From a virus: a DNA stretch of 64,000 nt. Positions 6,825 to 9,671 of this stretch are shown one piece after another; the stretch's first letter is position 1, and the number at the start of each line of letters is the position of its first letter. The notes below the pieces were generated by a model. The model was not told the origin of the DNA, did not search any database, and was given only the letters and a program-made list of their open reading frames with translations. The stretch is taken from IMG/VR virus record IMGVR_UViG_3300043777_000365, positions 22,754-86,753 of that record; one strand, written 5' to 3'. The translations under genes were made by a program, and so were the position numbers.

Positions 6825-9671
6825 TCAGGTGACCCCGCTCGACTGCTGGGTCGAGGTCGGCTTCGTCCCCGCCTGCGGCATCAGCGTCGAGTCGTCGAAG
6901 CCGCTGTTCGCGTCAAGCGCCACCTCGACGAAGTTGACCGCGTCGACCTCGATCGTGAGCCCCTGGTCCACGTCCCACGCGAGCGAGTCGCTCTTCACGA
7001 CGAACTGGCTCTGGAAGCTCGTGGACGAGAACGCCTTGAGGTACGCGCTGATGAACTGCGGGTCGAACCCGAGCGCGGACAGCTGCTGCTGGGCGGCGGC
7101 CTGCTGGGTGGCGGCGTCCTCGAGCTCGCCGATGGAGTGCTGCACGGCGGTGGGCTGGCTCGTGTCCACCCGGTCGACCAGGTACTCGATGCGGTCGCCG
7201 GCGAGCATGTCGAGCACGTCCGGGTCGGAGTTGTCGCCGCCGTAGCTCGCGGTGTTGCGCGCGGTGAGCTTCACCTGCAGCTCCCCGCGGTTCAGCCCCT
7301 CGTAGTAGTGCTGCGCCGCCACCTGGAGCGTGTTGAGGTCGGTGATGCCGCTGACGGTGTAGACGCAGTACTTGGTGACGTTGCCGCCGTCGCCGGGGAG
7401 GGTGGAGACGGGGCGGATGTTCTTGGTGGGGGTGCCGGTGGAGCTGCCCTGCTTCAGCGGGGGGTGGCGCGCGACGAGAGTTTGCTTCTTGGACTCGTCG
7501 TAGCAGTTGTGGGTTATGATCCCGTCCGACGTGAACCAACCCGACCGAGTCTGGAGATTGTAGACGTGCCCCGACCAAGCAGAACGCTCGACCTTGAGGA
7601 CCTTGCTCGTCGTTACGCGGACGGAGCCACGTTCGCCGAGCTCGAACGCGCCGAGAACCTCCCGCACAACGCCTTGTGCAGGCACTTCCGACGAGCTGGG
7701 ATTCCGACTCGCACCGGTGGCGTGGAGCGGAATCGCAAACATCGAAGAGAGCTGGCGATGTTGCTGGAGAAGCTTCCAGACCTTCCGCAACAATATGCGA
7801 CCGGGGCCGCCTCCATCCGAGACTTGTCGAGGTCGTTCCACCTGGACAGCAAAGTCGTCCGAGACTTGCTCGTCCTCGCCGGGGTCGAGGTCCGAACTTT
7901 GTGCGCCGCCAGCCAAAACCGCTTCCGAAAACTCGGACCAGAGGGAGCCAAAGCCCTCACCGAGCCCATGCACGCCGCCGTGCGCGGTCGCCGCTGGCCT
8001 CGTGAGCTCGTGCGCCGAATGCAGGAGGAACGAGCAAAGGCGCTGCAGAAGTCTCGTCGCCACGAAGGTCGGTTCGAGGCCGAGCTTGCCAAAATGCTTC
8101 GGCGCCGAGGACTGCGGCCCGTCCCGCAGCAAGCCGTTGGTCGTTACAACCTCGACCTCGGACTCCATCCCATCGCCGTGGAAGTCCACCTTTCCGGTGG
8201 GTCTCCTCTCCACTCCGCCCGCCTTCGAAAGCGAGTCAAAGACCTTGCCGATCTCGGTTGGTCCAGCGTCTTCGTTTGGCTCAACCCCAGGTCCCCGCTT
8301 CGGGAGGGCGCAGCAGACAAGATCGTCGCCCTCCACGAGCTCGCCCATCGCGACCCATCCGCGCGCCGTGAGCACTGGGTGATTCGGGGTTCCGGAGAGG
8401 ACCCGCCCGTTCCAGGCACGTGCGGTTACAAGGGTCCCTGAGTACCACCGCCGATAGGCCTTCTCGACGTCCCTGGCCGCGACGACCGAGTCGCCCACCA
8501 GGCAGCGAAGCTCGATGGCCTTGCGGGCGGTGCGGGTGTACTTGCGCCCGCACTTCGCGCTCTTGAGGTTCCGCCCCCAGACGAACGTGCGCAGCGGGTG
8601 CACCTGGCCGTCGGCCCACGTGTAGCCGGTGAACGGGTCGTCGTAGCGGGGAGGGAACCCCTTGCTCGTCGCGGAGCGGACCCGCTGGATGACGACCGTG
8701 GTCCCCTCGACGCGGCAGTTGTGCCCGACGAGGAGCATGATCTCGACGAGGTAGTCCCACACGCTCATCTTGTTGGTGCCGCTGGTGCCGCCGCCCTTGT
8801 TCGCGGTGGGGCCGCCGAGGTCGGGCCGGTACGCGCTCGGCCCCATCGACGTCGAGAGCATCGGGATGCTGCCGGAGGGGACCGCCGGCCGGTACTCGAC
8901 CGACAGCCCCTGGAACTGGGGGAAGTTGGTGAGCAGCTGGGCCACGGCCTGGTCCAGGGGCTTGGTCACGTCGATGGAGAGCATCGGCGGCATCTCCTGG
9001 TCGAGCAGGAGGCGCGTGTTGTCGACGCACTTCATCCGCACGAGCGCCGTGCCCTCCGACGAGAACTCGTAGTCCCAGTCGTCGACCCAGCCCTGGAAGC
9101 GGAGGTTCGTGCGGGGGTTGCCCTTGGAGTCGACCCACGTGTCCGGGACCATGTTCACCGGGGTGGCGGTCTGCGTCTGGCCCTGCGTGGCGGTCTGCGT
9201 CTGCCCGGCCACCCCCTGGGAGAACTGGTCTTGGGTGAGCATGCCCAGGTAGAACTCGATGGCGACGGAGCGGAACGCGCGCGGGTCCACCGGCAGGTCG
9301 ATGTAGCGGAAGGCGACGTCGAGCGTGTCGCCCTGCTTCCAGCCGTTGCGGCCCATCTTCGCGTCGTGGGGGATGATGCCCGCGACCACCTGGGTGAGCC
9401 CGTCGGAGCTCGAGCTCTGCGCCTGCGGCCCGCCGGGGGCGGCCTGGGCGCCGGCCGCCGCGATGACGTAGCGGGTGATCCCCGCCGGGGCGGTGGGGTC
9501 CTGCTGGTAGGTGAGGGGGGCGTTCTGGGAGACGGTGCCCTTGAGCAGCTGCGGGGGCTGGAGCGTGGACGGGTCGACGATGCTGTCCGCGTACTCCTCG
9601 AGCCGGAGGATGAGCCGGATCTTCGCCCCCGGGAAGTACGACTGGTCGGTCGGGTAATCTTGGTTGGGCAC
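6825..9671 (-). CDS. Baseplate hub (gp27/late control D-like) precursor containing an intein
   Basis: 948 aa; FQGWVDDWDYE...VRMKCVDNTRLLLD is hub-like; lies between the LysM and spike genes; intein at residues 390-722. Confidence 0.75.
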   Translation of the reverse strand: MPNQDYPTDQSYFPGAKIRLILRLEEYADSIVDPSTLQPPQLLKGTVSQNAPLTYQQDPTAPAGITRYVIAAAGAQAAPGGPQAQSSSSDGLTQVVAGIIPHDAKMGRNGWKQGDTLDVAFRYIDLPVDPRAFRSVAIEFYLGMLTQDQFSQGVAGQTQTATQGQTQTATPVNMVPDTWVDSKGNPRTNLRFQGWVDDWDYEFSSEGTALVRMKCVDNTRLLLDQEMPPMLSIDVTKPLDQAVAQLLTNFPQFQGLSVEYRPAVPSGSIPMLSTSMGPSAYRPDLGGPTANKGGGTSGTNKMSVWDYLVEIMLLVGHNCRVEGTTVVIQRVRSATSKGFPPRYDDPFTGYTWADGQVHPLRTFVWGRNLKSAKCGRKYTRTARKAIELRCLVGDSVVAARDVEKAYRRWYSGTLVTARAWNGRVLSGTPNHPVLTARGWVAMGELVEGDDLVCCALPKRGPGVEPNEDAGPTEIGKVFDSLSKAGGVERRPTGKVDFHGDGMESEVEVVTTNGLLRDGPQSSAPKHFGKLGLEPTFVATRLLQRLCSFLLHSAHELTRPAATAHGGVHGLGEGFGSLWSEFSEAVLAGGAQSSDLDPGEDEQVSDDFAVQVERPRQVSDGGGPGRILLRKVWKLLQQHRQLSSMFAIPLHATGASRNPSSSEVPAQGVVREVLGAFELGERGSVRVTTSKVLKVERSAWSGHVYNLQTRSGWFTSDGIITHNCYDESKKQTLVARHPPLKQGSSTGTPTKNIRPVSTLPGDGGNVTKYCVYTVSGITDLNTLQVAAQHYYEGLNRGELQVKLTARNTASYGGDNSDPDVLDMLAGDRIEYLVDRVDTSQPTAVQHSIGELEDAATQQAAAQQQLSALGFDPQFISAYLKAFSSTSFQSQFVVKSDSLAWDVDQGLTIEVDAVNFVEVALDANSGFDDSTLMPQAGTKPTSTQQSSGVT
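7506..8504 (-). mobile_element. Intein (333 aa) in the baseplate hub gene
   Basis: N-terminal CLVGDS, block B TPNHPVL, block F HVYNLQT, C-terminal IITHN followed by +1 Cys (spliced junction ELR|CYDE). Confidence 0.9.
7566..8441 (+). CDS. Antisense-encoded DUF559/Vsr-like endonuclease with N-terminal HTH-like repeats, nested in the intein
   Basis: 291 aa; EAELAKMLRRRGLRPVPQQAVGRYNLDLGLHPIAVEVH...DLADLGWSSVFVW follows the DUF559 pattern; TATGAT at 7515-7520 and GGAG at 7553-7556 precede the GTG. Confidence 0.75.
   Translation: MPRPSRTLDLEDLARRYADGATFAELERAENLPHNALCRHFRRAGIPTRTGGVERNRKHRRELAMLLEKLPDLPQQYATGAASIRDLSRSFHLDSKVVRDLLVLAGVEVRTLCAASQNRFRKLGPEGAKALTEPMHAAVRGRRWPRELVRRMQEERAKALQKSRRHEGRFEAELAKMLRRRGLRPVPQQAVGRYNLDLGLHPIAVEVHLSGGSPLHSARLRKRVKDLADLGWSSVFVWLNPRSPLREGAADKIVALHELAHRDPSARREHWVIRGSGEDPPVPGTCGYKGP

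Follow-up and report, generated by a model that had tools for sequence, protein, structure and literature searches.

Blocks F and G of a phage intein as the probable control region of an antisense homing endonuclease gene

How is a homing endonuclease gene expressed when it lies backward inside an intein, on the strand opposite to that of the gene that the intein interrupts? The question is raised by a stretch of viral DNA of 64,000 nucleotides (nt), positions 22,754 to 86,753 of the IMG/VR virus record IMGVR_UViG_3300043777_000365 and hereafter called the window, in which a structural gene on the minus strand contains an intein and the complement of the intein encodes a putative Vsr-like endonuclease (Table 1). 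The answer put forward here is that the intein probably brings along a complete antisense cassette of its own from which the homing endonuclease is expressed. In the proposed mechanism, the 60 nt that encode the last 20 residues of the intein (blocks F and G) would serve, on the plus strand, as the 5' control region of the endonuclease gene and would hold, in this order, a -10 box (TATGAT) in two Ile codons, a short leader, a GGAG ribosome-binding site in a Leu-Gln pair, and a GTG start codon on a His codon. RNA polymerase would start at about 7527-7529 in this phage, and the endonuclease protein would be made. Since homing copies an intein exactly, and since the box, the ribosome-binding site, the start codon and the open reading frame (ORF) all lie within the intein borders, they would move together, as one piece, into any host gene.

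The comparison of related loci demonstrates a sequence layout, a strict conservation of position, and a base-specific conservation of synonymous sites across the family. The original prediction, that the expression signals are embedded in splicing-essential sequence and would travel with the element, draws its support from this comparative conservation. The parts of the mechanism are not equally firm: use of GGAG and GTG is highly probable if a transcript exists, and for TATGAT at 7515 as an active promoter in this phage we put the chances somewhat above even.

The intein has the sequence motifs of a class 1 Hint intein, namely an N-terminal Cys, T-x-x-H in block B, a C-terminal His-Asn and a Cys at position +1, which directly follows the terminal Asn codon (7506-7508 on the minus strand). 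Its matches to PF14890 (E value 1.8e-6, 28.3 bits, below the curated cut-off of 35.8) and to TIGR01445 (E 0.0018, score 19.3, below the curated cut-off of 24.5) are sub-threshold yet specific. Moreover, a homologous insert in Escherichia phage Snoke (positions 1117-2976 of its locus, L090) was annotated as an intein (mat_peptide) by the depositors, with no gene annotated on the opposite strand. Regarding the host gene, Pfam and NCBIfam profiles gave no family match with either extein of the gene at 6825-9671, and its match to phrog_15127 in a PHROGs search concerns the intein part only. The endonuclease ORF lies wholly within the intein, shares its codon triplets, and ends 63 nt inside the N-terminal border.

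At the control region itself, the claim that the I-I-T codons before the terminal HN read GGTTATGAT on the plus strand proved correct, the sequence being present at 7512-7520, one base after the start that the original prediction gave for it. The two Ile residues beneath TATGAT occupy positions -5 and -4 from the terminal Asn, and the hexamer has T1, A2 and T6 of the sigma-70/sigma-A -10 hexamer; the triplet directly before it is GGT, which places a G at -14 and does not give TG. Likewise, the L-Q codons of block F do give GGAG 9 nt before the GTG at 7566, as had been proposed, and ATA is indeed a very rare codon in this phage: none of the 20 Ile codons of the exteins is ATA, and nine other long ORFs use it once among 202. 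The fold of the predicted leader is unremarkable (z = 0.90).

Table 1. Features of the intein locus, in window coordinates.
Feature	Position	Strand	Description
-10-like box TATGAT	7515..7520	+	complement of Ile codons ATC (7518-7520) and ATA (7515-7517)
Predicted 5' leader, about 38 nt	7527..7565	+	placed from -10 geometry, with a start about 7 nt after the box
Shine-Dalgarno sequence GGAG	7553..7556	+	complement of CTC-CAG, the Leu-Gln codons of block F; 9-nt spacer to the start codon
Start codon GTG	7566..7568	+	complement of block F His codon CAC
Antisense endonuclease gene	7566..8441	+	291 codons and stop TGA; two helix-turn-helix (HTH) domains; putative nuclease domain of the Vsr/PD-(D/E)XK-like kind
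C-terminal endonuclease motif E-H-W-V-I-R-G-S-G-E	8370..8399	+	same triplets as block B S-G-T-P-N-H-P-V-L
Intein	7506..8504	-	333 codons; Cys1 CLVGDS..., block B T-P-N-H, block F H-V-Y-N-L-Q-T, block G G-I-I-T-H-N, Cys+1
Host structural gene	6825..9671	-	ORF of 948 codons including the intein

Two sets of loci were used for the comparison. The first consists of 90 loci and combines the window with 80 viral contigs and 9 phage records; of these, 23 were left out for another spacing, no start on the anchor codon, a miss of the search pattern or a truncated locus, and 14 more were removed as redundant (at least 90% identity), leaving 53 loci that are less than 90% identical in the 60 nt. The replicate set was drawn from metagenome and genome contigs and comprises 85 loci, of which 55 were parsed by the pattern; 43 of these have the 60-nt spacing, a filter on start codon and score left 36, and 30 of them are both new and non-redundant. 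As for the 30 replicate loci that the pattern did not parse, the minus frame is open across the match in 29, and a looser pattern, applied to 21, resolved 14. The null expectation for the 53 loci was obtained by recoding each peptide 2000 times with synonymous codons drawn from the extein usage of that same locus. Offsets are given as positions within the 60 nt between the intein end and the start codon, and the window box is at offset 9.

The register of the start codon is strict: 67 of the 90 loci of the first set have ATG, GTG or TTG opposite the block F His codon, at a distance of exactly 60 nt from the codon of the terminal Asn, to be set beside the 43 of 55 parsed replicate loci with this spacing. 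Upstream of the start, GGAG or GAGG is found in 50 of the 53 loci (recoded mean 15.8, maximum 27) and the full GGAGG in 32 (mean 8.4, maximum 16). A box of the form TANNNT stands at offset 6, 9 or 28 in 45 of the 53 (recoded mean 8.2, maximum 16) and at offset 9 or 6 in 30, against 3.8 expected under synonymous recoding. The position of the window box, offset 9, accounts for 24 of the 53, and TG precedes the box in half of them (12/24). The sequences at offsets 9 and 6 are TATAAT (10 loci), TACAAT (7), TACGAT (6), TATGAT (3), TAGAAT (2) and others (2). In addition, 12 of the 53 loci carry a two-part arrangement, with at least five of the six bases of TTGACA at offset 5, then 17 nt, and then TANNNT at offset 28, for which recoding gives a mean of 0.2 and a maximum of 3; this TTGACA-17 nt-TATAAT sequence lies wholly inside the intein. 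The replicate set has a box at offset 6 or 9 in 21 of 30 loci (5.7 expected, maximum 13) and a ribosome-binding site in 27 of 30 (7.3 expected). On these counts, the putative ribosome-binding site and start codon are better conserved than the TANNNT box.

The position of the box follows the type of intein. When the loci are classed by peptide only, inteins ending S-S-N have the box at offset 28 and the TTGACA consensus at offset 5 in 12 of 12 cases, with the whole promoter-like sequence contained in the codons of S-L-Y-I-A-N-G-x-L-S-S-N; inteins ending x-H-N, the class of the window, have it at offset 9 in 19 of 25 and at offset 6 in 2 of 25. Phages of E. coli and Salmonella that belong to the Guernseyvirinae have TGcTATAAT at offset 9, and so does Escherichia phage Snoke, where it stands before an ATG. 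The box is retained in 70 of 83 loci, over 17 different contexts in the C-extein, and the two closest relatives in the same host gene (L010 and L011) retain TAYGATCCC and GTCTGGAG while the DNA between the two has diverged. In three viral contigs (L044, L072 and L077) no start is possible at the anchor codon because the block F His is Pro, and an ATG is found 9-12 nt downstream. Ahead of this shifted ATG, L044 has acquired an AGGA site, and it retains the TTGACA/TATAAT pair.

As a separate observation, the same antisense gene is found in an intein subclass that ends Y-T-G-N, with Gly-Asn in place of His-Asn and Thr, Ser or Cys as the +1 residue. Its loci are the metagenome contigs L127, L134, L145, L152, L159, L164, L168, L173 and L175, and they have TANNNT either at offset 10, where it is partly forced by a Tyr codon, or at offset 24.

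Several points weigh against TATGAT at 7515 being a promoter, and against the family signals in general. The hexamer alone is no more than chance in this genome, since both strands of the 86.7-kb contig have five TATGAT sites and about 5.4 are predicted from base composition; the site at 7515 exceeds chance only through its conservation in related loci. It has no TG at -15/-14 and no -35 element 16-18 nt upstream, and a consensus promoter scan of 7300-8800 returned 0 two-hexamer sites. A look for RNA sequencing runs that cover 6900-8700 listed none. The extein stretch in which a -35 element of the x-H-N class would lie is not conserved and mostly matches TTGACA at 2-3 of 6 positions. Within the family, a box is absent from the three offsets in 8 of the 53 first-set loci and 5 of the 30 replicate loci, the box at offset 28 is not significant in the replicate set (8 of 30, with 4.3-6.5 expected), and the Gordonia phages Vivi2, Fosterous and Angelicage (L001, L003 and L004), of a kind named in bioRxiv 10.1101/2025.01.02.630785, have the weakest signals, with TACCCT at offset 13 and AAGGTG as the ribosome-binding site. 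The sense strand of these 60 nt has a TANNNT hexamer at some point as well, in 31 of the 53 loci and 24 of the 30, a figure that is uninformative as a control because conserved Tyr codons create such hexamers. Finally, the loci are homologous, and the counts of the first and replicate sets are therefore not counts of independent events.

To these points must be added the relation of the site to the promoter-like sequences of the phage itself. Fifteen of the 54 YATGAT sites on the contig are preceded directly by GG, followed directly by G, and trailed at 6-10 nt (mostly 6-7) by a start codon; they look like leaderless promoters. The original prediction matched TATGAT at 7515 with the TATGAT/CATGAT boxes of the phage, and the match is good for the hexamer but fails in the flanks, which are GT on the upstream side and C on the downstream side, with no start codon placed for a leaderless mRNA. 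Site 7515 was accordingly considered as a member of the phage's own promoter class and rejected, having none of the class flanks. As to that class in its own right, GCGG-CATGAT-G (or TATGAT) with ATG or GTG 6-7 nt on is seen in the window at 9686-9731, 20890-20945, 22290-22340 and 41540-41600, among others, an arrangement that suggests leaderless mRNAs, and several YATGAT sites of the phage come just after a 20-bp palindrome, TTGGAAACCCGGGTTTCCAA.

Compared with the family consensus TGn-TATAAT, the sequence GGT-TATGAT has a G at hexamer position 4 and is missing the T of TG; at the codon level, the window copy has the host-preferred ATC at -5 and ACC at -3, and is consensus-like only in the ATA at -4. 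The box would thus be a weakened form of the family consensus, and expression of the endonuclease in this phage is probably low. Its reading as a -10 element is supported by its position and by the conservation of the family.

The alternative that fares best accepts the ribosome-binding site and the start codon as real, and holds that TATGAT is a non-functional leftover from a lower-GC (guanine plus cytosine) donor, with the endonuclease transcribed from elsewhere, by antisense read-through, or hardly at all. The weakness of the box agrees with this, as it has no TG, no -35 element, one mismatch to TATAAT and none of the phage-type flanks, as does its absence from the fixed offsets in some members of the family. 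Codon use points the same way, for it is foreign throughout the intein: third-position GC is 73% in the intein (7506-8504) and 98% in the exteins (6825-7505 and 8505-9671), and A/T-ending codons make up 25% of intein codons and 1.3% of extein codons. The whole intein is compositionally foreign to the phage, and with a quarter of its codons ending in A or T the ATA could be an unameliorated leftover. Three observations stand on the other side, however. Among the YATGAT sites listed, no phage-type plus-strand promoter is seen upstream of 7566 that could serve in its place; TAYGAT is kept in place in the two closest same-gene relatives despite the divergence around it; and A/T-ending codons number 1 among the first 21 intein codons, which lie outside the overlap with the ORF, versus 4 among the last 20, although these are small numbers. 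On balance, we consider the leftover unlikely, and prefer a box that belongs to the cassette.

Evidence of another kind comes from synonymous positions in a high-GC set of 33 loci, defined by at least 60% GC and an intein ending x-H-N. The retention of ATA in high-GC homologs, a point raised by the original prediction, is found there in the third base: codon -4 ends in A in 20 of the 33 loci (ATA 9, GTA 10, CTA 1) and in T in 6, and the residue varies among Ile, Val and Leu while the third-position A stays. Codon -5 ends in T in 19 of the 33 and in A in 2, and at codon -3 the third base is A in 18, whose complement supplies the T in the TG of an extended box. At most other positions A-ending codons are found in 0-7 of the 33 loci, codon -16 being also high, with 12. 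The base pattern of codons -5, -4 and -3 is exactly what TGnTATAAT would predict, and not what a model of rare codons and pausing would. Further into the control region, 76 of 83 loci use CTC for the Leu of block F, as do 14 of 14 below 55% GC.

The pausing model just mentioned supposes that the synonymous pattern of block G serves the host mRNA, for example by rare codons that delay the ribosome and give the intein time to fold ahead of the C-extein, and ATA, GTA and ACA are in fact rare in high-GC genomes and cluster at -5 to -3. Besides the base-specific pattern (20 A and 6 T at codon -4, 19 T and 2 A at codon -5), it is opposed by the presence of the same boxes in phages of 43-51% GC, where those codons are not rare, and it leaves unexplained the TTGACA-17 nt-TATAAT of 12 loci where 0.2 are expected. 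We regard it as very improbable, and return to the cassette and to the gene that it would serve.

The antisense endonuclease gene is real and belongs to a large family. An exhaustive protein search returned 1520 cluster representatives at E of at most 1e-3, where a word-index search gave just 5. The window protein itself matches PF18741 below the cut-off of that profile (E 2.1e-4), but PF18741 is found in 29 of 35 family members scanned, and most have resolvase-type HTH domains. In the structure database the window protein matches PDB 3hrl (E 4e-5) and Vsr, 1cw0 (E 0.022), and the profile TIGR00632 (vsr) gives E 0.066. A PHROGs search with the endonuclease returned no family, a near-identity DNA search for the window locus in phage records gave no match, and a search for the locus in viral contigs by single protein found no relatives. 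By tblastn, the endonuclease matches 117 phage records, every match below 60% identity. These include the antisense strand of MuF genes in the Gordonia phages Vivi2, Fosterous, Affeca and Angelicage (35-38% identity, E 1e-38 to 2e-30); the Vivi2 match is antisense to gene 14 and has 37.6% identity over 96% of the query (E 1e-38). Of 14 annotated phage records that were inspected, 13 have the homolog, without annotation, on the strand opposite an annotated gene for head morphogenesis or a minor capsid protein. The exception is a free-standing, annotated endonuclease homolog in Acinetobacter phage vB_AbaM_IME285 (L093, 455-1348), a possible outgroup for how the endonuclease gene entered inteins. 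The strand opposite this homolog is full of stops. In phages of 37-46% GC the endonuclease frame stays open.

That the plus-strand ORF is a mere shadow frame of a high-GC gene and that all of its signals are chance, as might be suspected from a plus frame that in the window is open from 7137, well outside the intein, and is typical of a codon-register antisense frame in high-GC DNA, is scarcely credible, being already contradicted by the size of the family, by the frame open at 37-46% GC, by the HTH and PD-(D/E)XK domains of most members, by the free-standing annotated homolog, and by the recoding controls, which argue against chance.

The overlap of the two genes is also visible at the other end of the ORF. 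The most conserved C-terminal motif of the endonuclease family, [YW]-x-V-I-R-G-x-G, shares its triplets with block B G-T-x-x-H-P, and because both are encoded on the same triplets, two conserved protein motifs stand on one stretch of DNA (8370-8399). G275 and G277 are near-invariant residues of the family.

A bolder reading, to which we give a little less than an even chance, is that the regulatory DNA of the antisense gene shapes the splicing motifs. It comprises three things together: the block F His would be set by the complement of ATG or GTG, the Asn/Asp-Leu-Gln would be held by GGAGG, and each intein subfamily (…I-I-x-H-N, …S-L-Y-I-A-N-G-x-L-S-S-N and …Y-T-G-N) would match its own promoter layout in the last 20 codons. 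If true, a promoter consensus would constrain the sequence of a protein catalytic domain, and the cassette would be a fully portable unit of promoter, ribosome-binding site and gene that needs nothing from the host gene. Apart from this bolder reading, the conserved layout suggests how a homing endonuclease that faces backward in an intein can be expressed in whatever gene the intein enters, and the locus is a clear natural overlap of three layers: a motif for protein splicing, candidate signals for antisense transcription and translation, and an ORF on the antisense strand. In practical terms, annotators may look for ATG or GTG opposite the block F His codon, at 60 nt from where the intein ends, a rule that marks genes missed in well over a hundred phage records, and the promoter idea is directly testable in cultivable phages of E. 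coli, Salmonella and Gordonia.

It remains to place the element among known systems. Extended -10 (TGnTATAAT) and -10-only promoters are types of sigma-70/sigma-A promoter. Many members of the window's class carry TGnTATAAT at offset 9, like the former, and the candidate box of the window keeps T1, A2, T6 and the G at -14; unlike an extended -10 promoter, it is without the T of TG and has a G at hexamer position 4.

Endonucleases tied to inteins have been described in several arrangements. In the "fractured genes", a Vsr-like endonuclease gene stands free between the two parts of a split intein, and the untranslated leader of such a gene contains hairpins and late promoters of the T4 type (Dassa et al. 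2009, PMC2677866). The likeness to the window lies in a Vsr-like endonuclease that is tied to an intein and has a 5' control region of its own, and overlap with the downstream intein is discussed there as a constraint; in contrast to those split inteins, the window intein is contiguous, its endonuclease gene is antisense, and the candidate signals lie inside coding triplets. Antisense LAGLIDADG endonucleases are known from the Synechocystis DnaX and the Chloroflexus SpoVR-like inteins (Gorbalenya 1998; Gogarten et al. 2002, as cited in 10.1101/2025.01.02.630785), and they share with the window the placement of an endonuclease on the strand opposite a full intein, although the nuclease family is different.

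The closest system is the antisense VSR-like homing endonuclease in non-canonical inteins of actinobacteriophage minor capsid genes (Gosselin, Arsenault & Gogarten, bioRxiv 10.1101/2025.01.02.630785), which appears to be the same element family, with intein and backward Vsr-like endonuclease forming one unit. The text of that preprint, its supplements apart, makes no mention of a promoter, ribosome or start codon, and a literature search that likewise did not extend to the supplements found no account of expression signals in intein block F/G codons. The window differs from the elements described there in its host gene, a structural gene other than MuF whose C-extein begins C-Y, and in that the start codon, the ribosome-binding site and the candidate promoter box are placed in blocks F and G, with the 3' end over block B. 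The architecture of an antisense endonuclease within an intein is therefore already known, and what appears to be new is the proposed portable control region embedded in it.

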